A DNA stretch of 64,000 bases from Candidatus Omnitrophota bacterium (GCA_015494465.1 WGBD01000007.1:67009-131008), one strand, 5' to 3'; numbered from the stretch's first letter, positions 5,565 through 53,033 are shown. Notes: generated by a model from the sequence alone, not told the origin. Numbers and translations are program-made.

Positions 5565-5621
5565 TGCCCCCTCCTTTTTGCCCCCCAATCCGATCTATCA
5601 TCGATTTAAATATAACACATT

Positions 5622-6029
5622 CTAACGCTTTTTAGTACCCTTTTTTCCTGAGCTATGCCCCTTGCGGTTGTTGGGCTTGAGCCAAAGCTCGTAAGAGTCT
5701 TTCCCATCGCTCAAGACCACATGATCAGGATAGATCTCGGTGATGACGAGCCCTGATATGCGATCCCCGACTTTGTACAGCTTCTTCTCAATGATCGCCT
5801 TGGACGGTCCCTTGGAACGATAGATGATCCCTTGGAGCCTCAGGGCAAGGACCTTTTTACCGCTGTTCTCCTCTTCTTGGAAGAGGATCTTGCCAGAGCT
5901 ATCAACCACCGGCATAAGGGGATCCTTTCTGCCGTGATCGTCGTAGACGAACTTTTTTTCTCCTCCAAAGGCGAGAAAAGAGACAGCAAACAAAAGACCC
6001 AAACCCAAAAGGACCCTAACAGATCTCAT
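5622..6029 (-). CDS. PilP/GspC-like secretin-interacting protein (signal peptide plus HR domain)
   Basis: The 135 aa from [18 protein letters not shown] form a signal/anchor. The segment [49 protein letters not shown] matches the PilP/GspC homology-region pattern (L.L.G....AII....V..GD.I....V..I....V.L). It lies immediately upstream of the secretin. The ORF track start at 6125 overlaps hisI and is rejected. Confidence 0.5.
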
Positions 6030-6367
6030 AAGCGCCCCCCTCGATAGAAACAACTGCGGTTGCCCGTGTGACAGGCTATACCGCCCACCTGTTCCACCTT
6101 GATTAATATTGTATCCCCATCGCAATCATAATACAACTCTTTTACCAACTGATAGTGACCGGAGGTCTCACCCTTCACCCAAACCTTCTGACGGGACCTG
6201 CTCCAATAGGTGGCCTTGCCGGTCTCTATGGTCTGCTTCAGGGTATCTTTGTTCATGTAGGCCAACATTAGCACATCGCCTTTCTCGTAGTCTTGGACTA
6301 TCACTGGGATCAAGCCCTTCTCGTCGAACTTGATCTCATCCAAGAAAGAAGTGTCCAACTTATTCAT
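6026..6367 (-). CDS. hisI: phosphoribosyl-AMP cyclohydrolase HisI (monofunctional)
   Basis: The 113-aa ORF has [89 protein letters not shown], the canonical HisI metal-binding CDGD...CH...C core. No other his genes are in the window. Confidence 0.9.
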
Positions 6368-7745
6368 CCTCTCCTCCTTTCTCCTTCAATCCGTACTTCT
6401 CCAGGAGATTGTACAACTGGGTCCGACTTATACCCAAGAGATTAGCAGAAAGGGATATGTTCCCGTTCGTCCGCTCCAATGCAGAGGTCAAGAGGCGTCT
6501 CTCTAACTCCTCCTTTGCCCGTTTCAGATTAAAGGATTCGCCTAGGTTGAGGGGAAACACCCCGCTAGATCCGCCGGAGGGTATCTGGATGTGCTCTCCC
6601 TTGATTAGATGGGAATCGCACAGGATCACCGCTCGCAAGATCACATTCTCTAGTTCCCTCACATTGCCTGGCCAATGGTAAGAATACAGCTTCTCGATGG
6701 CCGACTCCGACAGGCCTATAATCCTCCTCTTCATCTGGGAGGAGAGTTTATCCACGAAGTACTGGGCCAACAAGATGATGTCTTCTCCCCTTTCTCTCAA
6801 CGGGGGCAGGTGTATGTTTATCACATTGAGCCTATAGAAAAGGTCCTCCCGGAAGGTCCCTTCCTCCACCTTCTTGGAGAGGTCCGCATTGGTTGCGGAG
6901 ATGATCCGGATGTCCAAAGGCACATCCTCTACCGAGCCTACGGGTTGTATCACCTTCTCTTGGAGGACGCGCAGGAGTTTTACCTGGAGGTGAAGGGGCA
7001 ATTCCCCTACCTCGTCCAAGAACAAGGTCCCACCGTTGGCCAGCTCAAACCTGCCTTTCTTGTTGCTCACTGCCCCAGTAAAGGCCCCCTTTTTGTGACC
7101 AAAAAGCTCGCTTTCCAGGAGGTGTTCGGGGATGGCCCCGCAGTTTACCGCCACGAACGGGCCCTCCTTTCTGGCGCTGAGATTGTGGATCGCCCGGGCG
7201 ACCAATTCCTTGCCCGTACCAGACTCTCCAGTAATCAGGACCGTAAAGTCCCCGTGGGCAACATGTTGAATCAGGTCGAAGACCCTCTGCATCTGGGTGG
7301 ACTTACCCACCAATCCCGCAAAGCCTATGTCCCCAGGCAATCGGTAGCTCTTTATGGCCTCCTCGATCTCCCTTATGTGCAGGGCACGGGTGAATATGAT
7401 CTTTAGCTCTTCCACCTCTATGGGTTTCACATAGAAGTCGAAGGCCCCATTCCTGATCGCGGAGATGGCGTTCTCGCGGGTGTCGTTAGCGGTAATCACC
7501 ACGACCTTGAGGAGCGGGTCTCGGGAGAGCATCTCGGAGAGGAGTTGCAGGCCTTCGTTTCCTTCCGGGCTCCCCGAGAGGTTTATGTCCAATCCGACCA
7601 ACTGGGGACGGAAGGACTCCAGTAAAGAAAAGACCTCCTCCCTATTACCTCTGGACAGGGCCACCTCGTAGTCCTCGGCAAAGGCCCACTTCAATTGATT
7701 CAGTATCGAGGGATCGTCGTCTATTATCAACAGCCTCGGCTTCAT
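6360..7745 (-). CDS. prsR: sigma-54-dependent response regulator (REC + AAA+ + Fis-HTH), probable PEP-CTERM-box regulator PrsR
   Basis: The REC domain is [15 protein letters not shown]...DINLSG. The sigma-54 activator core has the Walker [16 protein letters not shown] and the GAFTGA loop ([11 protein letters not shown]), followed by ESELFGH and a C-terminal HTH. The PrsR call rests on adjacency to a multi-TM histidine kinase, EpsI and the exosortase. PilR is the alternative. Confidence 0.7.
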
Positions 7746-7747
7746 TC

Positions 7748-9562
7748 TTAATATACCTCTTTCCCGAACCTTAATATCACCTCTGTACCGACATTCCGTT
7801 CCGAGACCACCTCTATTCTACCGTTGCAGGTCTCGAGCAACGACTTGACCTCGTACATCCCTATACCCAATCCGCTCTCTTTGGTAGTGACGAATGGGCG
7901 AAAGAGCTTCTTCCTCACGAAATCTTCGTCCATCCCCGTACCGGTATCCTTTACTATTATCGACCATTCCCCTCTATCGTTTCGTTCGCTCCAGACGGAT
8001 ATCTCGCCTTCTCCTTTCTTGCGGATGGCGTCCACCGCGTTGAGGAGGAGGTTCTCCACGATCCGGGCGAAGGCAGACTTACTGCAGTTGAGAACCAAGG
8101 CCTCGTCAATGTCAACCTCGACCCGTATACCAGTGGCTCCCAGGTTAAGTCGTTCCAAGACCTCCTCAACCACCTCCCTAGGGCTGAAGCGAGCGGTATC
8201 GCCCTCTACGGAGCTAGACTTCCGATAAGAGGAAAGCCTGTCCACCACTGCCTTCAGCCTCGCTAGTACCTCCTTTATCGTGGTGTAAGCGTCGGAGACG
8301 AATTCTGGGTTGTCTTTGTTCTTTTTCCAATTCATCACCAACAGGGAAAGACCGGAAACCGAATTCTTCACATCGTGGACCAGAAAGGAGACCACCCGAT
8401 TGAACTGGGCAAACTGCTGGATCTCCATGAGCTGACGCGACAGCTTGGATAAAGTAAGCATAACCGATATGTTCCGGCCTATCATGTAGATTAGATCCGA
8501 AGGTACCGTCCCCTTATCCAACCCCTTCAACAACATGAGCCCCACCAACTGCTTGCGAAATACCAACGGGATTATGAGTTCCACATCCTTGAATAGCTCC
8601 TCTTCCAGGCCGATTCGCCATATCTCTTCGGGAGATACGGGCCCATCCTTCAACCAAAGATACTTCTTAACCTCAGGTGGTAAGGAATCGAACGCCTCGG
8701 ACTCCCCCTTCCACACGATCGACAGATCCCCTACCCCAAACCTAGCCCTGAAGTAATCCCTAGCTCGCCTTACTATCTCGTCTTCGTCGGTTATGTCCTC
8801 AATAGTAGTGAGAAAGTCGTCCCACTCCTTGACCGGATCGTAATGTTGGTAACCTAGGATCCCCTGGAAAAGGCCCTTCATCCACCTCTTAACCCCTTCA
8901 CCGAAGAACAATATCAACCCCAAACTCACCAGACCCAGGGCTATCAGCGTCGACCAAAAGACCCTGACATCCAATCGCAATACATAGACGAGCTTGACTA
9001 TACCCGCAATCACCAGCATGTACAAGGCAGACAGCATCAGCAATGCCGAGGCGTCTACGACCTTTACGGTAGCAGTAGATCTACGGTCCCAGGTGCGCAA
9101 GGCCATGTAAAGGGAGATCAGCCCTACGCACAGCAGTGCCCACACGACGGGCCAGAGAAGACGGTTAAACATCAAAAACCAGGCCCCTAAGAAGATAAAG
9201 GCCAAGTTGTGGACCAGCAACCATACATAGGCAGAGGCCGACCCCTTGCGCAGGACCGTATCCGAGGAAAGGATGAGCAAGGCATGGCCGATAATCGCCC
9301 CTGAGATGAATATCTGGCCCCAAAGACCAAGGCTGGGATAGACCGACTCCACTGCAGACAACCCGGCGAACAGTAACAGCAACATTCCCAACCAGGGCAC
9401 CACATACCTGTACTTCCTCGCCACCGTACGGTGGGCCAGACCAAACAGGTGGAGTATCCAGGATAGGAAGAGGCCCAGCAAAACGATGTTCGGAGGAATC
9501 CAACCGCTCAGAAATCTACCCAGCAAGCCGACGAAGAAGAAGAGGAGGTAGAGTCCCAACAT
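7748..9562 (-). CDS. prsK: multi-pass membrane sensor histidine kinase, probable PEP-CTERM system kinase PrsK
   Basis: The N-terminal half is a run of about 8-10 hydrophobic helices. The C-terminal part has a GAF-like region, the H-box FLVHDVKNSVSGLSLL and an HATPase_c domain (ENLLLNAVDA...DTGTGMD...GLGIGMYEV). An ATG at 9560-9562 has GAGAGAGG upstream. The ORF track start is a TTG at 9592. Confidence 0.7.
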   Translation of the reverse strand: MLGLYLLFFFVGLLGRFLSGWIPPNIVLLGLFLSWILHLFGLAHRTVARKYRYVVPWLGMLLLLFAGLSAVESVYPSLGLWGQIFISGAIIGHALLILSSDTVLRKGSASAYVWLLVHNLAFIFLGAWFLMFNRLLWPVVWALLCVGLISLYMALRTWDRRSTATVKVVDASALLMLSALYMLVIAGIVKLVYVLRLDVRVFWSTLIALGLVSLGLILFFGEGVKRWMKGLFQGILGYQHYDPVKEWDDFLTTIEDITDEDEIVRRARDYFRARFGVGDLSIVWKGESEAFDSLPPEVKKYLWLKDGPVSPEEIWRIGLEEELFKDVELIIPLVFRKQLVGLMLLKGLDKGTVPSDLIYMIGRNISVMLTLSKLSRQLMEIQQFAQFNRVVSFLVHDVKNSVSGLSLLVMNWKKNKDNPEFVSDAYTTIKEVLARLKAVVDRLSSYRKSSSVEGDTARFSPREVVEEVLERLNLGATGIRVEVDIDEALVLNCSKSAFARIVENLLLNAVDAIRKKGEGEISVWSERNDRGEWSIIVKDTGTGMDEDFVRKKLFRPFVTTKESGLGIGMYEVKSLLETCNGRIEVVSERNVGTEVILRFGKEVY

Positions 9563-9563
9563 C

Positions 9564-10151
9564 TCACAGCCTCTCTCGCACGCTTGCGTCAAAGGCCCTT
9601 ATCAATTCCTCTCCAGCCGAGACCTCCCGAGGCGACAATACCAAGCGAATCAGATAAGTCCGCTTGGGGTGACCGGTCAAGGCGTAGTAGAGGTACTTTA
9701 GCTGATAAAGGTAATAGTTGTCCAGGTATTCGCTACCCAAGGCATACCAATACCACACCAATTGGTCGCCAGCCCTGTCCCGCACGGTCAACTGATTGAT
9801 CCTGTGCCCGTTGACAACCACCTTGCGTTTACCCAAGACCTTCTCCCCACCACCCTTAAGACACACCTCCGGAGGGTGCACCACCCTTCGATCGCTTTCG
9901 CTGACTATCACCGTAAGGTAGACGCTCCCACCAGGACAAGTATACCTCCTAGCCAGGACATTCCTGGTCCCCAAGATCTTATACACATAATCCTTGAGAG
10001 TAAGGGATTCCGAACTGCACTCCCCGAGTTCTTCAGGGACGACATTGGCCAGGTCCACTGACCTATTCACATCCCTGCCTACCTTGAAAAAGAGGTAATT
10101 CCCCGCGCAGGCAACCACGAACACCAAGAGGACTAATCCAATCCTCTTCAT
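9564..10151 (-). CDS. epsI: EpsI-family exosortase-associated protein
   Basis: The 195-aa ORF has a signal/anchor (MKRIGLVLLVFVVACAG). Its size, position immediately downstream of the exosortase and composition (YTCPGGSVYLTVIVSESDRRVVHPPEVCLKGGG) match the EpsI family that pairs with XrtA. Confidence 0.6.
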   Translation of the reverse strand: MKRIGLVLLVFVVACAGNYLFFKVGRDVNRSVDLANVVPEELGECSSESLTLKDYVYKILGTRNVLARRYTCPGGSVYLTVIVSESDRRVVHPPEVCLKGGGEKVLGKRKVVVNGHRINQLTVRDRAGDQLVWYWYALGSEYLDNYYLYQLKYLYYALTGHPKRTYLIRLVLSPREVSAGEELIRAFDASVRERL

Positions 10152-11047
10152 CTTCGGTCTTCCTCACCCACCTTCTTAGAGGCCACCGCAGAAAGCAAGT
10201 GGGCCACTATCAAAAGCCCTATCAAGTCCAAGCCAAATACCACATATCCCAAGGCATCGTGAAATCGTCCCAAGGCCACCTCCACCCCGTAAACATCCGC
10301 AACGAACCCCAGAGAAAGCACCCTAAAGACATTCCCTAGGAAGGCAACCAAAGGCGACAAGAGAACCAACATCAGGGTGTATCTGGTGCGCCAGCGCCTG
10401 ACTCGACCCAGCAAAAGGGCTATCGCCATCAGAGACACGATGGAACGCAATCCACTACAAGGGGCACCGACTTCCAACTGGGCCCGAGCGGTAAATATTC
10501 GATTTCCTACTACCTTGGTAGCGATACCAATGGCGCTCAACAACTTTCCCGCCAAGACCGCCGAGACACTCTTCAGATGCAGGGCAACCTGTTCCAGAAA
10601 TACCATGGGTAAAGGAATCGCCAACAGTGAGAAGAAGACCCAAAATCGGATCTTCCTCCAAAGCTGAGCCTCTAGTGAATACCTCAACACCACCAGAACG
10701 GACAGCCAGACCGATAAGGCCAATAGGAAGTAGACCTTTATCCATGAGGAGATGAGATAGAGGAGAGATACGAAGAGGACTGCTACCCAACCAGCCTTTC
10801 CCCCTCTAGCCAATGGCTCAGGCAGTCCACGGATGCGAAAGTCCCGATATAGGTGATAAATAAGCGCTACTATCGCAAGGCCTAGCACCAGAGGCCCGTG
10901 GGAATAATAAGACTCGTAAGCCATCCACCTCTCCCAGAACCAGCGGTAAACGGGCAGGCCCATTACCGCCACACCCACCGACAGGGCCAACCAGGTGAGC
11001 AGATTAATCAAATCTCTCGATGTCGTCTTCCTCGAGATAATCTCCAT
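10148..11047 (-). CDS. xrtA: exosortase (XrtA/EpsH family transpeptidase)
   Basis: The 299-aa polytopic membrane protein (about 8 helices) has a cysteine in the GAPCSGLRSIVSLMAIALLLG block and an Asn/Arg block FLGNVFRVLSLGF. This is consistent with the exosortase Cys-Arg-Asn triad. It is adjacent to EpsI and a PrsK/PrsR-like pair. Confidence 0.7.
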   Translation of the reverse strand: MEIISRKTTSRDLINLLTWLALSVGVAVMGLPVYRWFWERWMAYESYYSHGPLVLGLAIVALIYHLYRDFRIRGLPEPLARGGKAGWVAVLFVSLLYLISSWIKVYFLLALSVWLSVLVVLRYSLEAQLWRKIRFWVFFSLLAIPLPMVFLEQVALHLKSVSAVLAGKLLSAIGIATKVVGNRIFTARAQLEVGAPCSGLRSIVSLMAIALLLGRVRRWRTRYTLMLVLLSPLVAFLGNVFRVLSLGFVADVYGVEVALGRFHDALGYVVFGLDLIGLLIVAHLLSAVASKKVGEEDRR

Positions 11048-12416
11048 TCTGCACCTCTATGATCTCCAAAGGGATCTTGCCGGGATTCTCCAGCTTGTGC
11101 AACTCTCCCGCAGGTATGTAGGTGCTCTCGTTGGGATGGACATAGAACACCTCATCCCCCCGCCTCACCTTGGCCACGCCCCTCAACACTACCCAGTGCT
11201 CACTGCGATGCTGATGCCTCTGGAGGCTGAGGGCCTTGCCGGGATAGACCACTATCCTCTTGGTCTTGTACCTCGGGCCCCGATCCAGGATCACATAATA
11301 TCCCCAACCCCTCTCTACCCTGGCAGGATCTCTCCAGGAAAGGTCCTCTTCCTGCTCCAGCCTCTCTGCGACGGACTTCACCTCCTGAACATCGTCCATG
11401 GAGCAGACCAGGAGGGAGTCCGGCGTATCTACCACCACCAGGTCCTGCACCCCTACCAGCCCCACCGTCTTGTCCTTAGGAGAGATAACCAAACTCCCCC
11501 GGGCAGATTCTGAGACCACTCGTCCCAAGAACACATTCCCCTGCTCGTCTTTGTCGTACATCTCGTAGACTGCAGACCAGCTCCCCAGATCAGACCAACT
11601 GAACCTAGCAGGCGAGCACCACAGCTCGTCCAGTTTCTCCAAAAAGGCATAGTCTATCGATATGGAAGGCACCATGTCGTAGGCCTTCACCAGAGCTTCC
11701 TCCCCAGAGGCGTCGGCTATAGGTCGATACACCTCTGGCATCAACTCCTCTGCCTTTCGCGAGAAGGCCTCCAGGTCGAAGAGGAACATACCGCTATTCC
11801 AGAGATATCTACCCTCCGAGACATAGGCCTTGGCCCTGTCTAGGTCGGGCTTCTCGGTAAAACCTAAAACCTTACGGAGCTCAAACCGGGTATCGTCACC
11901 TAGACGCTCTCCCCCCACCTCTATGTACCCATAGCCAGTCGCGGGATAGGTAGGTGGTATGCCGAATACCACAAAAATCTTCCCCTCTCGGCACCTCTCA
12001 CCTGCCCAAGAGAGCTGGTGTCGAAATCTCTCCGTCTCTCGAATAAGGTGATCACAGGGAAGCATAACGCAGGGCCCACCCGCCCCTAACTCCTTGAGGG
12101 TCTTGACCGCCAACACGAGGGCGGGTGCGGTGTTCCTGCCTCGGGGCTCAGAAAGGAACACGGTCCTTCCCCTAGGGATACCGATATTATCTAGCTGCTG
12201 AGACAGAAGTCTACTCTGATCTGAGTTGGTCACCACTACCAACTTGCCCTCTTCCCCAAGCAGGTCCCACACCCTCATCACCGTCTCCTCGAAGAGGCTG
12301 GAATTACCGAAGAGAGATATGAGGTGTTTCGGGAGACCCTTTCTGCTGAGGGGCCAGAGCCTAGTTCCCTTCCCACCCGCAAGGAGTATCGCGTGCACTT
12401 CTCGACCTACCTCCAC
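11004..12416 (-). CDS. manC: mannose-1-phosphate guanylyltransferase / mannose-6-phosphate isomerase (ManC/XanB type)
   Basis: The N-terminal nucleotidyltransferase motif is ILLAGGKGTRLWPLSRKGLPKHL. The C-terminal cupin ends with GELHKLENPGKIPLEIIEVQNGDYLEEDDIERFD. The 470-aa length is typical of the bifunctional enzyme. Confidence 0.85.
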   Translation of the reverse strand: MEVGREVHAILLAGGKGTRLWPLSRKGLPKHLISLFGNSSLFEETVMRVWDLLGEEGKLVVVTNSDQSRLLSQQLDNIGIPRGRTVFLSEPRGRNTAPALVLAVKTLKELGAGGPCVMLPCDHLIRETERFRHQLSWAGERCREGKIFVVFGIPPTYPATGYGYIEVGGERLGDDTRFELRKVLGFTEKPDLDRAKAYVSEGRYLWNSGMFLFDLEAFSRKAEELMPEVYRPIADASGEEALVKAYDMVPSISIDYAFLEKLDELWCSPARFSWSDLGSWSAVYEMYDKDEQGNVFLGRVVSESARGSLVISPKDKTVGLVGVQDLVVVDTPDSLLVCSMDDVQEVKSVAERLEQEEDLSWRDPARVERGWGYYVILDRGPRYKTKRIVVYPGKALSLQRHQHRSEHWVVLRGVAKVRRGDEVFYVHPNESTYIPAGELHKLENPGKIPLEIIEVQNGDYLEEDDIERFD

Positions 12417-13531
12417 TTTACTGAATAGTCACCCCGCACATACCTCACCAGGGCCACAACCGCTGCCAGATTCATCACAAAGAAGGTATACGGCAGGGAC
12501 AACCTGCCCCTCGGCACCACCCCAAGAGAAAGTGGCACCACCGCCAGAAGGTAAAAGGCCGTCTGCAGGGCAAAGAACAGACCTGCCCACAGTGAGCCCG
12601 CTAAGGCGCTGGCAACATAACATACTACCATCGCATAGGGTACAAATAAACGAAATAGTTTGTGGGACAAAAACTGCCAGAATACCGGGTTCTTTAGGCT
12701 TACGAAGAAGGGATCAAGAGCGACTAGCTGAAAGTTCCCTATCAAAGTCCGCACCTTCCTTTGAAATTCCTCCCATTCGTCCTTGGCCACCCGATCGTAT
12801 ATCACCGCCTCCCGCTGAAAGACTATCCTCTTGCCCGCCCTTATCGCGTTAAAGGGCTGATAGACATCGTCGAGTATGACATCCCTCGGCAGGTCCGACA
12901 CCAATGAACCCCGCATTGCGTAAAGGGCACCAGTAGCACCCGTCAGGGAGAAGAACCTGGATTCACAGTCGCGAATAAGCTTCTCGTATCGCCAGTAAAG
13001 GCCTATGTCCCCCCTCACCTCACCCACATCGTCCAAAAACACCAACTCCCCGCTTACCGCTCCTACCGAAGGATCCCCCAAAGGTCTGATCAAGGTCCTA
13101 AGTGCGGAGGGGGCCAATGCCTGCCTGGCATCGCTAAAGACCACCACCTCCGCAGATAGATCCCGAGTGAGCTCGTTCAATACTGTCGGCTTACCCATAC
13201 GCTGGGCAAAGACCTGTATGGAGATGTTCTGGGATAGATCACCGAGGGCACTCCTTATACGCAAGGCCTCTTCCTGAGTTCCCTCGTCCAATCCAATCCT
13301 GACCTCTAACCGATCCAACGGATAGTCCGAGGCGAACACGCTCTTCAACTTCTCTATCAAAGCCTCCACCTCCCGATAACAGGAGATCACCATCGTGATC
13401 CTCGGGAGAAAATCCCCTTCCTTAACCGGCCTTGGTCTTATCCTCGCCAAACAACACATCAGCAGTGGATACCCCAGATAGGTGTACCCTACAAACAGGC
13501 AACTCGTTATCATTGCAACTTCTGCGATCAT
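12407..13531 (-). CDS. family-2 glycosyltransferase with C-terminal membrane helices
   Basis: The GT-A fold region has MVISCYREVEALIEKLKSV and the DxD region VVVFSDARQ. A hydrophobic C-terminal third suggests a synthase-like GT2. Confidence 0.7.
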   Translation of the reverse strand: MIAEVAMITSCLFVGYTYLGYPLLMCCLARIRPRPVKEGDFLPRITMVISCYREVEALIEKLKSVFASDYPLDRLEVRIGLDEGTQEEALRIRSALGDLSQNISIQVFAQRMGKPTVLNELTRDLSAEVVVFSDARQALAPSALRTLIRPLGDPSVGAVSGELVFLDDVGEVRGDIGLYWRYEKLIRDCESRFFSLTGATGALYAMRGSLVSDLPRDVILDDVYQPFNAIRAGKRIVFQREAVIYDRVAKDEWEEFQRKVRTLIGNFQLVALDPFFVSLKNPVFWQFLSHKLFRLFVPYAMVVCYVASALAGSLWAGLFFALQTAFYLLAVVPLSLGVVPRGRLSLPYTFFVMNLAAVVALVRYVRGDYSVKWR

Positions 13532-14220
13532 CTCCGGGAATAAAAACGAGACTTTATCGATTCGTAAACTCTACCTCCCAGCAATCTCTTCAGGGCCAAG
13601 GCAGAAAACCTGCGGACTTTTAGCCAACCCAGGTAAACTGGATCCTGGGAGAGAACCCTTTCCAATTGGGAGACCCCGTCAACCTTCCGAACGACGAATC
13701 TCGGAGCCAAGAATTCACCCCTCCAAACTCCGGGCTCGGAAGTAAAGGCGACCTCTACCCCGTAGTCCCTTAACACATCTTCACTGCGGGGGGGCACTAC
13801 GCCGTGGGGAAAGGAAAACCAGACAGGTCCCTGCAGCCACCTATTCAACTTATCTATCGCCTTCCTCAACTGGGCCTCTAACTCCTCTCGAGAGCTTATC
13901 GGTTTGTGCTCGTATCCGTGCAGACCGATCCTGATCCCTGCCTCTCTCAGTATGTCCAACTCCCCTTCCGCAAGCATCTTTCTTCCCTGCAAGGTTTCAC
14001 CCAGATAGGCTGGTGAGACGAAGACTACCGTCTCTATACCGGATTCCACTATCGGATCCAAGGCCTCCAGAATGGAGTTATACCCATCGTCAAAGGAGAG
14101 GATCACTCTACCTGAATAGGCCTTGATCACCCGCAGGTGATCCAAGAATCTCGGGAGGGAAACGGTATAGGGATCTCCATCCTCACCTATGTGGTGATAC
14201 ATCAGGACTACCTTCTCCAC
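13528..14220 (-). CDS. polysaccharide deacetylase (NodB homology domain)
   Basis: The NodB-type motifs are LSFDDGY, HGYEH and conserved His/Asp positions. The family is commonly found in exosortase loci. Confidence 0.7.
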   Translation of the reverse strand: MEKVVLMYHHIGEDGDPYTVSLPRFLDHLRVIKAYSGRVILSFDDGYNSILEALDPIVESGIETVVFVSPAYLGETLQGRKMLAEGELDILREAGIRIGLHGYEHKPISSREELEAQLRKAIDKLNRWLQGPVWFSFPHGVVPPRSEDVLRDYGVEVAFTSEPGVWRGEFLAPRFVVRKVDGVSQLERVLSQDPVYLGWLKVRRFSALALKRLLGGRVYESIKSRFYSRR

Positions 14221-16471
14221 CCAACACCTCGGAAAGGAATTCCCCTATCTCGTCCCTGCGCTTCAACAATTGACGGCCATCGTGTGTATACCTGGTAAAG
14301 GAATCCCAGAGCGAAGAGAAATCCAACAGGCGTCTCAATTGCTGGCGTTGCTCGAGAGGGAGATCCCTATTCTCCAATCCCTTCAAGAGGACCAGATACT
14401 CGTAGTCCTCCATACCGTCCCTAAATATCTCGTCCCTTATGCTGGGAACGATCTCGTCTTTATAGGGATAAAACAGACTACCGTTGCCGTTTTGCTGCCA
14501 CGGGGTATTGAAGGTAACCTCCCAGGGATTTCCCCCCTGCCAGAAGTTGACCGCCCAATACAGAAAACCCTTGATACCCTTTTCGAACATCATCCAGGGC
14601 AGGATACGATGCTCTACCCCCAGAGAGTCTATCACCAGGTTAGGGGTTTTGCCGTCGGGCCCAGAGACATACATCCATATCTCCATACCTCGCTCCATCA
14701 ACCTCCGCATCCCCAGCCGGTTATAACTGGCGATCTGGAAACACCAGATGTCTATGTCCTTGCCCCAATCGGGATTGACCGCGGGATCCCAGAACCCGTG
14801 ATAGCAGACCATGTTCTTCAGGCCGGGTGCAACCGAATGTATGGCGAAGCACACCCTTGCCACGAAGGGATCGCCTATCTTGCCCTCGTCCCAGGTGTAG
14901 ATGTAGGCCATGTCCAACAGTCCCATCTTGTCCAGGACATGGGCGTAATCCGCGTACCTGTCCGCCACTTCCTTCAACTTCTTCGGATCCCGGGGCCAGT
15001 TGTTCCCAAAACTTCCTCCGTAGCGCCCCACCGCAAAGGCATTGAGACCCCGATTTAGCAGGTCCTGGATCTCCTCCTTAAACCCGATCGCGGTGGGTTC
15101 CACCTTCAACATAGGGGACATGCGATACTCCAACATGAGGCTGTGGAGTTGATGCTTTATCTTTCTCAACCTTGCCTTCCACAGCCTGTAATCCTCCCCC
15201 TTCTTGCGGGGAAAGTACTCGGCAAAGAACGAGTCGTAGACATCGAAGGCGGTCTTGAGCGTGGGTCTTCTAGGGATAGAGAAGTCCCACACCTTTACGG
15301 TCAACGGTACCTCGTAGATCAGCTCCCCGCTGGATCCATCCACCAACCTAACCATCCCCGAATAGGTCCCTGCCTTTATTCTCTCACCCGCCTTAATCCT
15401 CACCAGGAGCAGACACATCTTCCCTTTGGATAGGTGGACCCTTCCCTTCACCTCCAACATTGGATCCGGCCACCACCCTACATGCGTGACCGGGTAATAG
15501 GGCCTTTTGGTCTTGACGAATCTCACCTCGTAGATCTCACACTTCAGGTTGGCCTTTAGGTCTAGCTCTATACGGAGATCCACATCCCGCTTCACATCGA
15601 ACAAGACGATCTGTTGGGACTCTGCCTCCCCTTTGGCCATTTTCAGGGATAGCACCTTGCCCATCTCCAGACGGTTGCGAAGATAGGAGCGCTTAGGTAT
15701 AACCTTAAAGATGCTATCTACCACCCCATAGGAGAAGGGCTTGACCACCTCTCCCGCAAAGGCAAGTCCCTCCCAAGCGAGGCCAGGGCTGCATTCCGCC
15801 TGGCGATTAGCGCAGTACTGTCCCAGTCCGTCCAGATACAGCTCCACGGTACTGCTAGGGGAGGGCAAGAAGATCTTTATGTAGGATATCGCCTTGGGAT
15901 CCAGGTTCTGGGAGAGCTCTGATAGGGGGATCCGCACCTTGGTCCACTTACCTGGTGCAAGGGAGTATGTGCGCTCGAAGACCTTTTTGGGATAGTTGGC
16001 CCCGCTCTTCAGCTTGACCACCAACCTCTGCTCGAACTGAGAGCGATTGAAGGCGTCAAATCCAAAGTACTCGCATCCCGACAGGTCCAGCAACCTAGAG
16101 ACATTGAACACCTCCCAATACAACCCCGGATAACTCGCCCCCGCAGGGAACTCTAGGTAGAGAGACCTCTTCCCCTCACTGGCCATCTCCGAGGTGAGCT
16201 CTGCGTACAACCCGTCGGTAAGCCGAAAGAACTTGAGGTCTCCCTGTTTCTCAAACCCCAAAAACCAACGGTCAGTTTTACCCCTCTTCCCCTGCTCCTT
16301 ATTGCCTCCAGCTGTGGAGGTAAAAGGCCTGCTCAAGCGCTTGCTCGTCTCCCGTATAGAGGAGAAGTCAGCGATCCCGCCCTCTTCCTTACCTAGTCCA
16401 TAACACACCACGAAGACCCCACAGGCCCCGAGGGCCAGACCTATCAAGAACGCAACTATCACATCCCGCAT
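14183..16471 (-). CDS. large membrane-anchored hypothetical protein (762 aa), possibly a DUF4091-like glycoside-hydrolase-fold protein
   Basis: The N-terminal TM helix is MRDVIVAFLIGLALGACGVFVVCYGL. The protein has a W/Y/D-rich region (VKVWDFSIP, YIYTWDEGKIGDP, FWDPAVNPDWGKDIDIWCFQ) that resembles carbohydrate-active folds. The family assignment is from memory and is unverified. Confidence 0.35.
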   Translation of the reverse strand: MRDVIVAFLIGLALGACGVFVVCYGLGKEEGGIADFSSIRETSKRLSRPFTSTAGGNKEQGKRGKTDRWFLGFEKQGDLKFFRLTDGLYAELTSEMASEGKRSLYLEFPAGASYPGLYWEVFNVSRLLDLSGCEYFGFDAFNRSQFEQRLVVKLKSGANYPKKVFERTYSLAPGKWTKVRIPLSELSQNLDPKAISYIKIFLPSPSSTVELYLDGLGQYCANRQAECSPGLAWEGLAFAGEVVKPFSYGVVDSIFKVIPKRSYLRNRLEMGKVLSLKMAKGEAESQQIVLFDVKRDVDLRIELDLKANLKCEIYEVRFVKTKRPYYPVTHVGWWPDPMLEVKGRVHLSKGKMCLLLVRIKAGERIKAGTYSGMVRLVDGSSGELIYEVPLTVKVWDFSIPRRPTLKTAFDVYDSFFAEYFPRKKGEDYRLWKARLRKIKHQLHSLMLEYRMSPMLKVEPTAIGFKEEIQDLLNRGLNAFAVGRYGGSFGNNWPRDPKKLKEVADRYADYAHVLDKMGLLDMAYIYTWDEGKIGDPFVARVCFAIHSVAPGLKNMVCYHGFWDPAVNPDWGKDIDIWCFQIASYNRLGMRRLMERGMEIWMYVSGPDGKTPNLVIDSLGVEHRILPWMMFEKGIKGFLYWAVNFWQGGNPWEVTFNTPWQQNGNGSLFYPYKDEIVPSIRDEIFRDGMEDYEYLVLLKGLENRDLPLEQRQQLRRLLDFSSLWDSFTRYTHDGRQLLKRRDEIGEFLSEVLGGEGSPDVSPHR

Positions 16472-17553
16472 GTTACCTCCTTCAACAATTCCTCGTACCT
16501 GGATATCATCCTCTCCAGGCTGTACTCTCGCTTTATCCTCTCCCTGGCCATCTGGCCCATTGTTCTCCTCACTTCCTCGTTTTCGTAAAGACTTAGTATT
16601 GCCCCTGCCAGGTCCATCGGATCGTCTGGGCTCACATAAAGACCGCAGTTGCCCAAGACCTCCTTGTTAGGGGCTATGGCAGTTGCTATACAAGGCCTCC
16701 CAGCGGACATGTATTCCAACAAGGTGTTGGACATCCCCTCGTCTCTTGAGAGCTGAACGCAGACATCCGAGCGAGAAAGGATCTCAGGGATGTCCTTCCT
16801 CTCCCCTAAAAACTCCACCACCGACTCCAATCCCTTAGCGTGCACCAAACCCTTGAGGCTGGACATCGTCCCTTTGTCCTTACCCACCAACCAGATCCTC
16901 ATTTCCGGAATCCGCGCCCTTATCAGCGAAGCGGACTCTATGAGCAGACGGTGATTCTTTACCTCCGAAAGGTTTGCTACATAGGTGATCACGAACCCCT
17001 CTCCTTCTTTCCCCTTCTCTTCGACAAGAAAGGATTCCACCCCGTTGGGAATGACCCTTACCTTCGCCTCGGGAAGGCCCTGTTGTCTGCGCAAGACCTC
17101 CTTTACATAGTGAGAGACCGCGCAGACATAATCGAACCGAGGATTTATAAACCAGCGGTAGACCCAAGGATGGTACGGTCTCATCCAGAAACCTGCATCC
17201 CTGCGCATCGAGACCATGGCCCCAGGATAAGAATCCCTCAAGAACATGGCCAGCCACAGGTCCGCACCGAAGTGATAGGAGAATATACTGCAGTAGGCCC
17301 TCTGGGCAATCCGCTTCCTCCAACGACAGGCAACCTCTCTGCCCCGAGGCGAATACACCCGCGATACCTTCTCGACGAAGACCTCTATCCCTTCCCGCTC
17401 AAACGAGGCCCTGTCCTTGCAATCCGACTGCAGGACCAACAGGTCTACCTTCCATCCTCTCTGGACCAATCCCTTAGCAAGTAGATACATCTGCTTCTCC
17501 GCACCCCCGGTGATCGCGTCCAGATAATCGGTTACTAAGAGCAGCCGCCTCAT
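16459..17553 (-). CDS. family-1 (GT4-type) glycosyltransferase
   Basis: The C-terminal GT-B signature is SRDEGMSNTLLEYMSAGRPCIATAIAPNKEVLGNCGLYV (the E-x7-E region). An N-terminal TDYLDAITGGAEKQMYLLAKGL block is also present. Confidence 0.8.
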   Translation of the reverse strand: MRRLLLVTDYLDAITGGAEKQMYLLAKGLVQRGWKVDLLVLQSDCKDRASFEREGIEVFVEKVSRVYSPRGREVACRWRKRIAQRAYCSIFSYHFGADLWLAMFLRDSYPGAMVSMRRDAGFWMRPYHPWVYRWFINPRFDYVCAVSHYVKEVLRRQQGLPEAKVRVIPNGVESFLVEEKGKEGEGFVITYVANLSEVKNHRLLIESASLIRARIPEMRIWLVGKDKGTMSSLKGLVHAKGLESVVEFLGERKDIPEILSRSDVCVQLSRDEGMSNTLLEYMSAGRPCIATAIAPNKEVLGNCGLYVSPDDPMDLAGAILSLYENEEVRRTMGQMARERIKREYSLERMISRYEELLKEVTCGM

Positions 17554-18902
17554 GCCCTATCCCTCGCGTACTCGTAGCTGGCCCTTGCCACTATCCCTGC
17601 GGAGACCGCAAGGTACATGTTAATGGGCAGATAGGCAAGCCTGGTCCCAAACATGTTACCCAGCAGTAAGGCCAGGATAGAACCGACGAGCCCCAAGGCC
17701 ATGGCCCTTAGGAACCACACATCCGCCTTGCGCCAGACCCGGTAGGCGATGAACAAGAGCCGAACGAACAGGTAGATCACCGCCATCAGCGAAGGCAACC
17801 CCATCTCCAGGGCTATGTCGTAGTACATGTTGTGGGTATCCCTGGGCAGTAAAAAGGCGGAGGCGTTGTAGCCGTAGCCTAGTATTGGCGAGGCCATGAT
17901 TTTCTGCCTCGCTATCCGCCAGACATTCTTGCGCCCCTTTATGCTGGCGTCCTCGTGGGTAATGGAAGTGAGTCTCTCCCTCACCGATACCGGCCACAGC
18001 GGATAGGACAACACCCCTAACAACACCAATAGGGCGAACACCCGCCGATCCTTTATCCAAGACATCCCACCCAATCCCAAGAAACACGACAGGTAGGCCC
18101 CCCGGGAATAGGTCATGAACAGGGCGTGGATCCCCAGTAATACCAGCAGAATAGAAAACAGGCGCAATGGTACATAGGGATGCTCCAGGGCTAGGGCGAA
18201 GACAAAAGGCAGGCCCTGGGCGTAATAGGTGCCCAGCTCGTTTGCCCCTCCACCGCCTTCGAAGGATCCAGGGATGCGCATCTTGTGGGAATAGTGCCAA
18301 GAGGCGACCGCGCTGTGCTGGGAAATGGTGACCCTAATCTCGTAAATCAGACCCAATACCATCACCCCAAAGAGGGCGATTATGTAGATGGGGCGCCGTA
18401 ACGAGAAGGAGTTCATAGAGAGCAACAGGACGATGTAGAAGGTAATGTAGCGCTTGAAACTGTTTAACTCCTCCCCCACGAGGGAATAACCAAAGAATGA
18501 GGCCCCTCTTATAAACGAGATAATGGCGAATACCAAGATTACCAATATCGGGATGTTGATAGGAGACGGCCTTACAAAGTCCTCCCTGCGCACCGCTGAA
18601 CCCAACAACCACCCCATCACGATCAAGACGAGAAATATGTTAGTCAGATTGACCCCTGAACCAAAGTTAAAGGTCCCAGTCATGAATGGCTCGTTGATGA
18701 TCAACAAGGTCCAGACCAGTAGGGGAATCTCCGGGCTGAACACCGCGCAGAAGAACAAGATCGCTCCCAAAAACAAGGCCAGGGTGATCTTGAGCCCTAG
18801 GACGAACATGCTCCAAAGGAGGATAAAGGAGAAGCCGATCCCTGCCAATAGGAGCCAACGCCAGTCTAGATATACGAACTCCTTCTCGTCAATTCGATAC
18901 AT
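17550..18902 (-). CDS. O-antigen ligase / Wzy-like polysaccharide polymerase family membrane protein
   Basis: The 450-aa protein has at least 10 predicted helices and a periplasmic loop typical of Wzy_C proteins (HNMYYDIALEMGLPSLMAVIYLF). The family is common in exosortase EPS loci. Confidence 0.6.
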   Translation of the reverse strand: MYRIDEKEFVYLDWRWLLLAGIGFSFILLWSMFVLGLKITLALFLGAILFFCAVFSPEIPLLVWTLLIINEPFMTGTFNFGSGVNLTNIFLVLIVMGWLLGSAVRREDFVRPSPINIPILVILVFAIISFIRGASFFGYSLVGEELNSFKRYITFYIVLLLSMNSFSLRRPIYIIALFGVMVLGLIYEIRVTISQHSAVASWHYSHKMRIPGSFEGGGGANELGTYYAQGLPFVFALALEHPYVPLRLFSILLVLLGIHALFMTYSRGAYLSCFLGLGGMSWIKDRRVFALLVLLGVLSYPLWPVSVRERLTSITHEDASIKGRKNVWRIARQKIMASPILGYGYNASAFLLPRDTHNMYYDIALEMGLPSLMAVIYLFVRLLFIAYRVWRKADVWFLRAMALGLVGSILALLLGNMFGTRLAYLPINMYLAVSAGIVARASYEYARDRA

Positions 18903-18916
18903 GGGCCGAGATCTAC

Positions 18917-19324
18917 CTACATTGCATAGGTGTTCTCTATGGTCCCGTCCCGGTTTATTCCAATGACATAGGGTTGATCCCTAGTCAGCTGATAGGAGGT
19001 CCTGTTGGCGTAACACACATCGGCTATGCTGGTATCTGGGGTGTCCCCAAGGTGGAACTCAAAGTACCTGGCAAAGGATTGGTCAGGTGGGGTTATGTCC
19101 AGGCTATTGAAGTAGGCGTCCGAGGATATCCACACCGCGTGTTCCGCGTAATAGCGAATCAAGGCCATCCTTATCTGACCCAGATACTTCAAGGCCTCGG
19201 ATTGCCTGGCCCTCTCCACCGTCTTAAAGTAGACCTGCTCCCCTAACGAGATCAGGATCCCGAGTATGATCAGGACCATCACCAGCTCCAAAAGGGTAAA
19301 TCCCGGTTTCGCCTTCATACCCAT
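18917..19324 (-). CDS. prepilin-type (type IV pilin / pseudopilin) protein
   Basis: The class III signal is MKAKPG|FTLLELVMVLIILGILISL (G-F-T-L-L-E with a hydrophobic helix). The mature protein is about 125 aa. Confidence 0.7.
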   Translation of the reverse strand: MGMKAKPGFTLLELVMVLIILGILISLGEQVYFKTVERARQSEALKYLGQIRMALIRYYAEHAVWISSDAYFNSLDITPPDQSFARYFEFHLGDTPDTSIADVCYANRTSYQLTRDQPYVIGINRDGTIENTYAM

Positions 19325-21174
19325 CTTCCACTTTCCTGAAGTATGCCCTTCAAGACCCTGCGAATGCCCCCTTTGTCCAACCCCACCTCTGCCAGTAGCT
19401 CTTCCCTCTTACCGTGCAGAACGAACCTGTTCTCCACACCACAGAGGTGAAATTCCCTATCCTTATTCCCTACCAGGGCCTTTAATCCCTCGCCAAAACC
19501 ACCCCGCACATACCCTTCCTCGAATACCACCACGGTATCCGCACCGTCCAAAACCCGCTCCAACCAAGCGCGATCCAGACCTATCAAGAAGACGGGATCC
19601 ACCACCCGTAGAGGCAGATTCTCCTCCTCGGCCACCTCTAATACCTGATATACCAAGGGGCCAACTGCAAATACCACCGTAGATCCCCTATCAATCAGCA
19701 CCTCACCTCGCCCTTCTAGTATCTCTCGCACCCGTCCTGGTCTGACCGCATCCTTTGGATAGCGAATAGCGATCGGTCTCCTCTCCATCCTGGCCTTTTC
19801 CAACGCCCAGCGCAGGGCAGAGCGAAGCATGCCTTCGTCCCTCGGGGCCAAGAGCTCCATCCTCGGGATGGACCTGAGATAACATATGTCTAACAGACCG
19901 TGATGCATAATCCCATCCTCTCCCACCAGACCCGCACGGTCGATGGCAAACACCACCCCCACATCCTGCAAGGCGACGTCGTTGACTACCTGATCGTAGG
20001 CCCTTTGGAGAAAGGTAGAGTATATCGCCACCACCGGCAATTTCCCTGCCCGGGACAGCCCCGCAGAGAAGGCAACCGCGTGCTCCTCCGCAATACCCAC
20101 ATCGTAGACCCGATTGGGAAACTTCTCTGCAACCGGTCTCAGACCAGTCCCGTCCAGCATCGCCGCGGTAATCGCCACCAAGGAATCGTCCTCAGAAAAG
20201 ACCTTGAGGACCTCTTCAGAGAATACCGAGGTAAAACTGCGCTGAAGGGCCCTGTCCACCTTGCCGGTATCTATGTCGAACTGCAAGACGCCGTGGAACC
20301 GCGTGGGGTCCTTTTCCGCAAACTGATACCCCTTGCCCTTTTTTGTCACCACATGCAACAACTTCGGCCCAGGCAGGAGCTTTATCCGCTCCAAGGTGGG
20401 TATCAACACCGACAGGTCGTGCCCGTCTATTGGACCAAAGTATCTGAATCCCAATTCCTCAAAAAGCCATCCCGGTACGATCAGCCCTTTAAGGGCCTCC
20501 TCCAACTTTCCCCCGAAGCGGGCCAGGTTTTTACCTATCTTGGGTATGCGGGATATAGCCGAACTGATACGATCGTGCAGTTTGTTGTAAGTGGCAGTAG
20601 ATATGATGCGGTTTACATACAGACTAAGTGCACCCTGCACCGGGGAAATCGCCATAGAGTTGGTGTTCAAGACCACGAGTATGTCGCTCTGGCCGTGCCC
20701 TGCGTGATTCAGGGCCTCGAAACACATCCCCCCGCTGAGAGATCCGTCGCCGATGACCGCCACCACCTTCCAATCATCCCCGTCCAAGTCCCGGGCCATG
20801 GCCAATCCCAAGGCCAGAGAAACCGCAGTGGAACTGTGCCCCACGGTGAAGGGATCGTGCTCAGACTCAAAGTGGGAGGGGAAACCGCTCAACCCCTTAT
20901 AGGTCCTCAAGGTATCAAAGCGATCGTTCCTGCCGGTGATTATCTTGTGGGCGTAGGCCTGATGTCCTACATCCCAGACGATCTTATCGCGGGGGGAATC
21001 AAAGACCCTGTGCAGGGCAACCGCCAATTCCACTGCCCCTAAAGAGGATGCCAGGTGCCCACCCCTGCGGGAGACGACCTCGATGATGCGCTCTCTGATC
21101 TCCTCGCAGAGCAGTTTCAGTTCCTCGAGATCCAAGGTCTTTAGATCAGAAGGGGAGTGAATCCTCTCCAACAT
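19315..21174 (-). CDS. dxs: 1-deoxy-D-xylulose-5-phosphate synthase
   Basis: The 619-aa ORF starts MLERIHSPSDLKTLDLEELKLLCEEIRERIIEVVSRRGGHLASSLGAVELAVALHRVFDSPRDKIVWDVGHQAYAHKIITGR. It has the TPP-binding GDGSLSGGMCFEALNHAG motif and a transketolase-like C-terminal domain. Confidence 0.95.
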   Translation of the reverse strand: MLERIHSPSDLKTLDLEELKLLCEEIRERIIEVVSRRGGHLASSLGAVELAVALHRVFDSPRDKIVWDVGHQAYAHKIITGRNDRFDTLRTYKGLSGFPSHFESEHDPFTVGHSSTAVSLALGLAMARDLDGDDWKVVAVIGDGSLSGGMCFEALNHAGHGQSDILVVLNTNSMAISPVQGALSLYVNRIISTATYNKLHDRISSAISRIPKIGKNLARFGGKLEEALKGLIVPGWLFEELGFRYFGPIDGHDLSVLIPTLERIKLLPGPKLLHVVTKKGKGYQFAEKDPTRFHGVLQFDIDTGKVDRALQRSFTSVFSEEVLKVFSEDDSLVAITAAMLDGTGLRPVAEKFPNRVYDVGIAEEHAVAFSAGLSRAGKLPVVAIYSTFLQRAYDQVVNDVALQDVGVVFAIDRAGLVGEDGIMHHGLLDICYLRSIPRMELLAPRDEGMLRSALRWALEKARMERRPIAIRYPKDAVRPGRVREILEGRGEVLIDRGSTVVFAVGPLVYQVLEVAEEENLPLRVVDPVFLIGLDRAWLERVLDGADTVVVFEEGYVRGGFGEGLKALVGNKDREFHLCGVENRFVLHGKREELLAEVGLDKGGIRRVLKGILQESGRWV

Positions 21175-34211: not shown

Positions 34212-34689
34212 AGTCCCTCTCTCCGTAGTGTTCCAAAGAGAACCTGATGGAATCAAACGACTTCCTCATCGGGAACCGCGGATGGGCAGGATCGTTGCCC
34301 TCGAATATAAACGGCTTATCGTAATCCGGATTCCCTGCGAAGTGGAGCCCGAACATCTCGTATATCTCCCTCTCGTAGAACTGCGCGTGGGGCCACAGGT
34401 GCATCACCGTGGGCTGGCGATCGGTTTCGTAATCCAACAGGCATGCCAGGAACAACCTCTGCTCCATAGAGAAGGAATAGAGGTTGTAAATCAACTCACA
34501 GTGCCTGTCGTCTCCCAGATCCACGCAGGTTATCGTGGCTAAGTAATCAAAGCCCGTCGCATAAAGGTCCTCTATTGCCTGCGGAACCTTATTCTTATCC
34601 AGCCGGGCGTAGAGGATCCCACCTGCCTCCTCTTTCACCTCTGCAGAGAGACTCTCTAAAAACCTGATTAAGTCCTTTTTATCCTTCAT
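34192..34689 (-). CDS. NuoC-like (30 kDa) subunit
   Basis: The 165-aa ORF has LATITCVDLGDDRHCELIYNLYSFSMEQRLFLACLL...ERE(I)YEMFGLHFAGNPD, typical of NuoC/MbhK. Confidence 0.8.
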   Translation of the reverse strand: MKDKKDLIRFLESLSAEVKEEAGGILYARLDKNKVPQAIEDLYATGFDYLATITCVDLGDDRHCELIYNLYSFSMEQRLFLACLLDYETDRQPTVMHLWPHAQFYEREIYEMFGLHFAGNPDYDKPFIFEGNDPAHPRFPMRKSFDSIRFSLEHYGERDYGGKKG

Positions 34690-34702
34690 ACCTCACACCT
34701 GC

Positions 34703-35248: not shown

Positions 35249-35265
35249 AATCTATACCTCCGACT

Positions 35266-40314: not shown

Positions 40315-40316
40315 AT

Positions 40317-40556: not shown

Positions 40557-40557
40557 C

Positions 40558-44710: not shown

Positions 44711-44715
44711 AGCAA

Positions 44716-46972: not shown

Positions 46973-47011
46973 CCCCCGCCCTCCTCATTCGCTAGGCGTC
47001 AGTAATCCACC

Positions 47012-47386: not shown

Positions 47387-47406
47387 ATCCCGCCTCCCTG
47401 GTTTTT

Positions 47407-48252: not shown

Positions 48253-48258
48253 ACCCCC

Positions 48259-49158: not shown

Positions 49159-49159
49159 G

Positions 49160-50227: not shown

Positions 50228-50238
50228 GAATCCACCTC

Positions 50239-51330: not shown

Positions 51331-51342
51331 TCTCTCGTCAAC

Positions 51343-52500: not shown

Positions 52501-52521
52501 CCCCCCTCCTTGCTCCCGGAA

Positions 52522-53022: not shown

Positions 53023-53033
53023 CCCTCCCCATT

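Follow-up and report, generated by a model that had tools for sequence, protein, structure and literature searches.

A rare and unnamed exosortase subfamily in a conserved glycan gene cassette of Candidatus Omnitrophota

What kind of exosortase system is encoded among the glycan genes of a Candidatus Omnitrophota bacterium, and where are the proteins that it sorts? The question is raised by a stretch of 64,000 nucleotides (nt) of one such genome (GCA_015494465.1, WGBD01000007.1:67009-131008; the whole stretch is referred to here as the window), in which 11 chained genes at positions 6360-19324 of the minus strand lie between dxs (19315-21174) and hisI (6026-6367). In the order of transcription they encode a prepilin-like protein, a Wzy_C protein, a family 4 glycosyltransferase (GT4), a GH123-like hydrolase, a deacetylase, a family 2 glycosyltransferase (GT2), ManC, an exosortase, its partner EpsI, a sensor kinase and a PrsR-type regulator (Table 1), the junctions being overlaps of 4-44 nt or gaps of at most 14 nt. 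Exosortases are widespread and, to our knowledge, their chemistry is unproven with respect to the attachment target, the role of EpsI and the connection to polysaccharide, and no structure exists. A first-pass annotation had presented the locus as a classic exosortase A (XrtA) neighbourhood with PrsK/PrsR-like regulators; its gene list is borne out in full, each gene being present where it had been placed, on the minus strand and chained to its neighbours. Our analysis assigns the exosortase to a discrete, rare and unnamed subfamily that is not XrtA. The reading that we favor, with somewhat better than even confidence, is that the locus is an operon of exosortase/EpsI and glycan genes which is specific to, and vertically inherited within, a small lineage of Candidatus Omnitrophota and which consists of a conserved ten-gene cassette and an extra prepilin-like gene upstream, and that its substrates are of the PEP-CTERM type, encoded elsewhere in the genome and activated by the kinase and PrsR through sigma-54.

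By its profile matches the exosortase is a member of the exosortase/archaeosortase superfamily, scoring 144.5 bits against PF09721 (cutoff 25.7) and 56.2 bits against the signature model TIGR04178 (cutoff 23). It fails the general bacterial model TIGR02602 (8TM_EpsH; 84.1 bits, cutoff 105.55) and the XrtA model TIGR03109 (87.7 bits, cutoff 208); the best-scoring named subtype is nominally XrtD, at 106.2 bits against a cutoff of 400, and none of the remaining named Xrt, Crt and Art models in NCBIfam reaches its cutoff. By the criteria of the curated models the XrtA label is wrong; the initial reading of an exosortase/EpsI locus amid glycan genes stands. The Cys and Asn/Arg blocks that had been pointed out are both found in the protein, at residues 194-202 (GAPCSGLRS) and 238-245 (GNVFRVLS). 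Cys197, Arg201, Arg242 and His263, together with further positions, are invariant in 13 sequences of the clade that share 37-85% identity; they correspond to residues proposed as catalytic (PMC1569441; bioRxiv 10.1101/2023.06.07.544157), and we regard Cys197, Arg201/Arg242 and His263 as the putative catalytic residues. The sequence has seven to eight predicted hydrophobic segments. An AlphaFold2 model built on the clade alignment is confident (pLDDT 84.7, pTM 0.80) and shows a polytopic bundle with ten predicted helices; the exosortase has no sequence match in the PDB, and a Foldseek search of the PDB with the model returned nothing at E<=0.001. The gene for the partner protein overlaps the exosortase stop by 4 nt, and its product, for which a single N-terminal hydrophobic transmembrane (TM) segment is predicted, passes the EpsI model TIGR02914 (56.7 bits, cutoff 42.8) and matches PF11984 with 74.4 bits.

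Few close relatives of this exosortase could be found. An exhaustive phmmer search against 1.84 billion representatives of 50%-identity clusters gave three clusters at E<=1e-30 (243, 236 and 196 bits), the next match having 113 bits; a search of 5.8 billion proteins gave 13 clusters at 39% identity or more, and a scan of Joint Genome Institute (JGI) metagenomes added only four more clade members, of which three are shorter than 3 kb. A neighbor-joining tree calculated without support values groups the members as one monophyletic clade with a stem of its own, and the closest named genomes with this exosortase are metagenome-assembled genomes (MAGs) of Omnitrophota. The RNase Y of the window likewise has its named close homologues exclusively in Candidatus Omnitrophica/Omnitrophota. 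The literature provided no link of Omnitrophota with exosortases beyond one incidental mention.

The gene order around the exosortase is well preserved. Three related loci, designated L002, L054 and L055, carry the complete ten-gene cassette from Wzy_C to PrsR in identical order, with exosortases that are 86, 45 and 44% identical to that of the window, respectively; L054 also has the dxs and hisI flanks of the window, and L055 has other flanks (PFK and Amidase_3). The cassette is kept across genomes whose exosortases share only 44-51% identity. Reduced versions are found in L004 and L005, which have ManC, exosortase, EpsI, kinase and PrsR only, and in L006 and L060, where deacetylase, GT2, ManC, exosortase and EpsI are followed by a 206-residue TM protein, with neither kinase nor regulator. 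ManC, exosortase and EpsI, with ManC directly upstream of the exosortase, are present in every clade locus whose contig extends far enough, and constitute the invariant core of the module. The prepilin-like gene occurs in the window and in L002 only; L055 lacks it and L054 has none between dxs and Wzy_C, so that it is not part of the conserved module. The 206-residue protein of L006 (6335-6955), which belongs to the most divergent subclade, is polytopic and stands after EpsI in place of kinase and regulator; it may be a remnant or a stand-alone form of the TM sensor region of the kinase.

The 3' end of manC and the 5' end of the exosortase gene overlap out of frame by 44 nt (window 11004-11047), and the same overlap is found in L002, L054 and L055, over a range of 44-86% exosortase identity to the window. 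The 13 N-terminal residues of the exosortase that are encoded in this overlap are kept in clade sequences P0001-P0010 and missing in the subclade P0011-P0013; in L006 an ATGA junction takes the place of the overlap. The exosortase itself evolves fast, its identity being down to 45-48% on contigs whose RNase Y is still 80-84% identical.

The regulator provides a tie to PEP-CTERM systems. It reaches 537.8 bits against the PrsR model TIGR02915 (cutoff 502.6), its best match by 106 bits, while AtoC (431.6 bits, cutoff 714) and NtrC (412.1 bits, cutoff 558.6) both fall short, and its orthologue in L005 scores 533 bits against the PrsR model. A receiver domain, a sigma-54 AAA+ domain and a Fis-type helix-turn-helix (HTH_8) make up its architecture, with a Walker A motif GESGTGKE at residues 173-180 and the GAFTGA sigma-54 contact loop at 220-225; judged from the protein sequence, it is a bona fide sigma-54 activator of the PrsR family with the GAFTGA loop intact. 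Among named proteins outside the clade, those of Desulfonatronum, Pelotalea, Geoalkalibacter and Nitrospiraceae come closest, with about 50% identity, and they are annotated as "PEP-CTERM-box response regulators"; the 50%-identical PrsR of Desulfonatronum (L100) has a PEP-CTERM gene as its immediate upstream neighbour. The PrsR family has been linked to PEP-CTERM and was defined by this co-occurrence (Haft 2006, PMC1569441), and in Aquincola the PEP-CTERM gene pepA needs RpoN (PMC9850573).

The kinase is a less clear-cut case. Its score of 228.5 bits against the PrsK model TIGR02916 is below the cutoff of 300, yet this is its best match, followed by AtoS with 98.8 bits, and no PilS model is among the matches listed. 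The alignment to PrsK covers residues 334-607 only (profile positions 408-676), that is, the C-terminal half, which contains an H-box (HDVKN, 406-410) and the HATPase_c domain (507-609); about nine hydrophobic segments lie in residues 1-230. The start of the gene is placed at 9562 by gene callers (604 residues), and the open reading frame (ORF; 614 residues) extends to 9592. The suggestion of PrsK/PrsR-like regulators is thus upheld by curated model for PrsR, whereas PrsK is the best match of the kinase at a score below its cutoff; a better fit of the pair to PilS/PilR or NtrB/NtrC, which had been raised, jointly with a genome devoid of PEP-CTERM proteins, as a reason to abandon the interpretation, was not observed.

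A link between cassettes of this type and sorted proteins comes from ten sister loci in MAGs of Omnitrophota and Planctomycetota (L007-L016, e.g., JAKLGJ010000001.1 and JAUIER010000007.1), whose exosortases are 28-34% identical to that of the window and whose order of exosortase and EpsI is the same as in the window clade. Tandem arrays of one to four VPEP-CTERM ORFs start 1.1-4.3 kb downstream of the exosortase in nine of these ten loci, namely L007-L012 and L014-L016; the tenth has only 1.5 kb of downstream sequence, and as some of the loci are near-duplicates, at least seven of them are distinct. The VPEP-CTERM examples that were tested, from L007 and L011, satisfy TIGR02595, and in L007 and L014 PEP-CTERM genes are placed between EpsI and the pair of kinase and sigma-54 regulator. 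A GT2 gene whose product is 36-38% identical to that of the window lies directly upstream of the exosortase in L010, L014 and L015, and L010 carries a homologue of the GH123-like protein at 46% identity. A good sigma-54 site was seen 5' of the PEP-CTERM genes of L007 only among the relatives, and was not used as evidence. Since the sister loci have linked PEP-CTERM genes, the homologous ancestral module does sort PEP-CTERM proteins, and on sequence similarity the window cassette is homologous to such modules.

The two groups mirror each other in their scores. The sister exosortases are near-canonical (TIGR02602 177-190 bits, with 190.1 and 176.6 as examples; XrtA model 173-194 bits), they pass TIGR02602 and have substrate genes beside them, whereas their regulators, with 403-408 bits against TIGR02915, remain below 502.6. 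The reverse applies to the window clade, in which a divergent exosortase without linked VPEP-CTERM genes is combined with a true PrsR, as opposed to the generic regulator of the sister cassettes.

The remaining genes of the cassette point to the synthesis of a glycan. ManC passes TIGR01479 (451.1 bits, cutoff 372.95). The adjoining GT2, with three to four C-terminal TM segments predicted, has PcManGT as its best PDB match (6YV7/6YV9, E 2.5e-17, residues 18-326, about 310 aligned), a membrane GT2 mannosyltransferase that binds GDP-Man (PMC12595478), and this likeness fits the adjacent ManC. C-terminal TM helices are common to both proteins; however, the similarity is low-scoring and PcManGT comes from another biological setting. 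The cutoffs of models for synthase-type enzymes are not reached, the scores being 31.5 bits for PgaC (cutoff 422) and 67.3 bits for PelF (cutoff 100). The deacetylase gene is kept in L002, L054, L055 and L006; no hydrophobic segment or signal-like N-terminus is predicted in its product, which for this reason probably works in the cytoplasm. The ORF of 762 residues that had been listed as an unknown protein is indeed present, and it is not without assignment, as a catalytic domain of the GH123 type is recognized in it (PF13320, E 8.9e-18), with the beta-N-acetylgalactosaminidase 8K2F as its best PDB match (E 3.9e-22) and one N-terminal TM segment predicted. A W-D-E-G motif at 526-530, invariant in five homologues, could hold the catalytic Asp-Glu pair of the GH123 type. 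The Wzy_C protein (at least eight TM segments predicted), with whose gene the cassette begins in L002, L054 and L055, matches none of the exosortase-associated NCBIfam models, its sole NCBIfam match being IctB, and has no PDB sequence match. Taken together, we infer that the cassette makes a mannose- and hexosamine-containing surface glycan or glycoconjugate, for which the Wzy_C protein would serve as the polymerase, the ligase or the oligosaccharyltransferase.

We suggest the following scenario for the preferred reading of a lineage-specific operon with PEP-CTERM-type substrates encoded elsewhere. ManC would supply GDP-mannose to the PcManGT-like membrane GT2, and a mannose/hexosamine surface glycan would be made and trimmed by this GT2 together with the GT4, the Wzy_C protein, the deacetylase in the cytoplasm and the GalNAcase-like hydrolase on its membrane anchor. 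The exosortase and EpsI could then cut the C-terminal tripartite signal off secreted proteins and hand them to an acceptor in the glycan layer. The multi-TM kinase would sense an envelope signal and phosphorylate PrsR, which in turn would activate the sigma-54 promoters of the substrate genes; these genes would lie elsewhere in the genome, and would most likely be of the PEP-CTERM type, as in the sister cassettes.

A number of observations weigh against this scenario. PEP-CTERM-like tails, in which P[ED]P precedes a hydrophobic helix with a basic end, were found in none of the six frames of the 64-kb window by three independent pattern scans, in agreement with the first-pass annotation, which had also seen no such ORF; nor do they occur in about 13 kb of extra flank, the total read being about 77 kb of a genome of more than 0.78 Mb. 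None of the eight clade loci that have at least 2 kb of downstream sequence shows a PEP-CTERM ORF within 2-10 kb downstream of the exosortase. With up to two mismatches to the sigma-54 consensus TGGCAC-N5-TTGCW, 20 sites were seen in the window where 21.4 are expected, none of them convincingly placed, and rpoN was not seen in the window. The divergence of the exosortase, which lies below even the TIGR02602 cutoff where its PEP-CTERM-linked sisters score 177-190 bits, is what would be expected if its specificity had changed. The glycan pathway, finally, is incomplete for both a Wzy-dependent and a classical synthase-dependent route, lacking flippase, priming transferase, co-polymerase and outer-membrane exporter. 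Scans of the window ORFs with NCBIfam and Pfam models, and precomputed Pfam matches, gave no Wza, Wzc, Wzx or priming sugar transferase, and the reported lack of Wza and Wzc is thereby sustained; of the Wzy-dependent pathway only the Wzy_C protein is present in locus and window, with no priming transferase, flippase (Wzx), polysaccharide co-polymerase (Wzc) or outer-membrane polysaccharide exporter (Wza). With regard to a synthase-type system (Pga, Pel or Bcs), the locus contains a membrane GT2 along with a deacetylase and a hydrolase, and no porin or tetratricopeptide repeat (TPR) protein.

The same divergence and the missing substrate genes make up the case for a new exosortase subtype with changed specificity, which would recognize a C-terminal signal of another flavour, or a dedicated substrate not of the PEP-CTERM type, encoded elsewhere. 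We consider this unlikely, if the strongest of the competing explanations. The exosortase fails the general model and every named subtype model, its clade stands more than 80 bits apart from all others in score, it evolves fast in comparison with RNase Y, PEP-CTERM genes that are adjacent in the sisters are missing in eight of eight clade loci, and exosortase subfamilies are described to act on targets marked by differing signal flavours (Haft, bioRxiv 10.1101/2023.06.07.544157). The named minor subtypes (XrtD with VPLPA-CTERM, XrtC with VPDSG-CTERM, XrtV, XrtW and others) are, like the window clade, distinct subfamilies with their own neighbourhoods. The window exosortase nevertheless scores far below their cutoffs of 145-475 bits and also misses the archaeosortase cutoffs of 95-100, and in size it differs from XrtD, XrtW and XrtT, which are fusions of about 470-490 residues, in having 299 residues and a separate EpsI. 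Against a new signal speaks the regulator, which passes the cutoff of PrsR, a family defined by co-occurrence with PEP-CTERM. A generic scan for C-terminal TM helices with basic tails in the window and the clade loci (about 150 kb) returned ordinary membrane proteins only, providing no candidate for an alternative tail, and dedicated systems normally encode the target beside the enzyme (bioRxiv 10.1101/2023.06.07.544157), which is not so here.

A related and rather doubtful scenario is that of an orphaned exosortase module uncoupled from PEP-CTERM, which may use an undescribed C-terminal signal or may act, together with EpsI, on or with the glycan of its own operon, the PrsK/PrsR pair having been recruited, possibly from Desulfobacterota- or Nitrospirota-type systems.

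That the locus is a classic XrtA system with PrsK/PrsR whose substrates are merely out of view we regard as very improbable. The comparison with the proteobacterial XrtA-EpsI systems with PrsK/PrsR/PrsT (PMC1569441), including those of floc formation in Aquincola and Zoogloea (PMC9850573), does yield a number of similarities: an exosortase and EpsI pair inside a glycosyltransferase locus, as is found for XrtA (PMC1569441), PrsR and EpsI matches that pass their cutoffs, PrsK as the best match of the kinase, and conserved Cys, Arg and His residues. The host, however, belongs to the Omnitrophota, the exosortase fails both the XrtA and the general cutoff and scores higher with XrtD, itself far below its cutoff, and the N-terminal sensor of the kinase is not aligned to PrsK. 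PrsT, a priming transferase of the EpsB type, Wza, Wzc, the glycosyltransferase, ligase and acyltransferase families associated with XrtA, a PEP-CTERM gene and a PEP-CTERM box are all absent from view. The GT4 has the XrtA-system glycosyltransferase TIGR03088 as its best NCBIfam match, at 130.6 bits against a cutoff of 409; TIGR03087 and TIGR04063, likewise associated with XrtA, are far below cutoff at the locus, and there is no match to the EpsB-type TIGR03013. No window ORF that was scanned matches PrsT, which could lie elsewhere in the genome as could Wza and Wzc, and none reaches the roughly 900 residues that we take to be the length of PrsT. Genes for a FeeM-like N-acyl synthase and an AMP ligase, close to the right end of the window, were considered as XrtA accessories and rejected, as they match neither TIGR03694 nor TIGR03098.

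Least probable of all is a module for pilin or other protein O-glycosylation or for a surface glycan, in which the Wzy_C protein would be a PglL/PilO-like oligosaccharyltransferase acting on the prepilin-like protein and the exosortase-EpsI pair would have another role or be a relic: the prepilin-like gene does stand directly upstream of the Wzy_C gene, much as in the pilA-pilO arrangement, a GspC/PilP-like gene and a secretin follow 0.3-2.5 kb downstream and polymer export machinery is missing, but L054 and L055 have intact cassettes without the prepilin gene, active-site residues that stay invariant under strong divergence indicate that the exosortase is not a relic, and ManC-exosortase-EpsI is the most conserved core.

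Table 1. Genes of the exosortase locus, with positions in the window and the family matches that characterize their products (aa, amino acids).
Product	Position	Strand	Characteristic matches
PrsR-type sigma-54 enhancer-binding response regulator, 461 aa	6360-7745	-	TIGR02915 537.8 bits
PrsK-like multi-TM sensor histidine kinase, 614-aa ORF	7748-9592	-	best match TIGR02916, sub-cutoff; HATPase_c
EpsI-family exosortase partner, 195 aa	9564-10151	-	TIGR02914 56.7 bits; PF11984 74.4 bits
Exosortase, unnamed divergent subfamily, 299 aa	10148-11047	-	PF09721 144.5 bits
ManC, GDP-mannose pyrophosphorylase / mannose-6-P isomerase	11004-12416	-	TIGR01479 451.1 bits
Membrane GT2 glycosyltransferase	12407-13531	-	PF13641, PF13632, PF00535
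NodB-type polysaccharide deacetylase	13528-14220	-	PF01522 E 1.9e-11
Membrane-anchored GH123-like glycoside hydrolase, 762 aa	14183-16471	-	PF13320 GH123_cat E 8.9e-18
GT4 glycosyltransferase	16459-17553	-	PF13692, PF00534, PF13439
Wzy_C-domain polytopic membrane protein (polymerase, ligase or O-oligosaccharyltransferase type)	17550-18902	-	PF04932 E 6.1e-14
Prepilin-like protein	18917-19324	-	PF07963, TIGR02532; leader MGMKAKPG/FTLLE

The cassette is embedded in a densely packed stretch of about 70 credible genes (1-64000), all on the minus strand, with negative GC skew along the entire window. Most junctions are overlaps or gaps of less than 20 nt, so that operon boundaries are not readable from spacing; a scan for sigma-70 promoters and terminators between 3.5 and 22 kb performed no better than with shuffled sequence, and an Rfam scan of the entire window gave no family at gathering score. 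Outside the cassette the window holds what are, on their sequence matches, housekeeping genes, including argJ, argC, RNase G, a secretin, a GspC/PilP-like gene, xseAB, RNase Y, XerC, an MsbA-like ABC exporter, an Mbh/Nuo-Mrp-like complex, a chemotaxis cluster and ATP synthase. The secretin (3828-5588) is of the GspD/PilQ type, with 220 bits under both family cutoffs, and a small TM protein with weak T2SS-C/B-like Pfam matches is encoded at 5622-6125, just 3' of hisI; the arrangement of hisI, small TM protein and secretin is kept in L002 and L054.

At 33105-41413, a run of NuoD, NuoC, NuoB and NuoH-like subunits leads into Mrp/Mbh-type antiporter subunits with MnhB and MbhE matches, an array that looks like a membrane-bound hydrogenase/Mrp-type respiratory complex and not like a full complex I. 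A tRNA-Arg(CCG) called here by ARAGORN (38109-38189, minus strand) lies within a 498-residue Proton_antipo_M ORF (37750-39246), has no Rfam tRNA match and is probably a false positive. The chemotaxis cluster (43500-53900) comprises CheY-like receivers, CheC/FliN-like, PilZ, CheA, CheR, HDIG, HEAT-repeat, CheB, a methyl-accepting chemotaxis protein (MCP), CheW and HDOD genes, and its GC content of 0.48-0.51 is below the 0.52-0.58 of the remaining window. Between this cluster and the ATP synthase operon, a gene of the MuiA family of "mucoidy inhibitors" (DUF4139/DUF4140, TIGR02231 215 bits; 55887-57491) adjoins a glycogen-synthase-like GT5/GT4 gene (54249-55874). Just beyond the right end of the window (L057, 1-8907), a protein of more than 1041 residues without Pfam match, a methyltransferase, a B12-type radical SAM protein, an AMP-dependent ligase, an unknown 284-residue protein and a FeeM-like N-acyl amino acid synthase are encoded; this stretch may be a small biosynthetic cluster for a lipid or an N-acyl amino acid, in a form other than the XrtA-associated one.

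The exosortase described here is most suitably treated as a rare subfamily that has no name and belongs to a conserved cassette of Omnitrophota, and if the genomes do hold ordinary PEP-CTERM genes elsewhere, it would be a routine though unnamed one. The clade is compact and strongly conserved, and its exosortase is physically tied to GDP-mannose synthesis, as far as the shared 44-nt overlap, and to a small set of glycan enzymes; the question of the acceptor can be addressed more cleanly in such a system than in the sprawling XrtA loci. The cassette extends regulation of the PrsK/PrsR type to the Omnitrophota, a candidate phylum known from metagenomes only, and the natural contrast with the substrate-linked sister cassettes offers a route to the discovery of its targets through comparative genomics.

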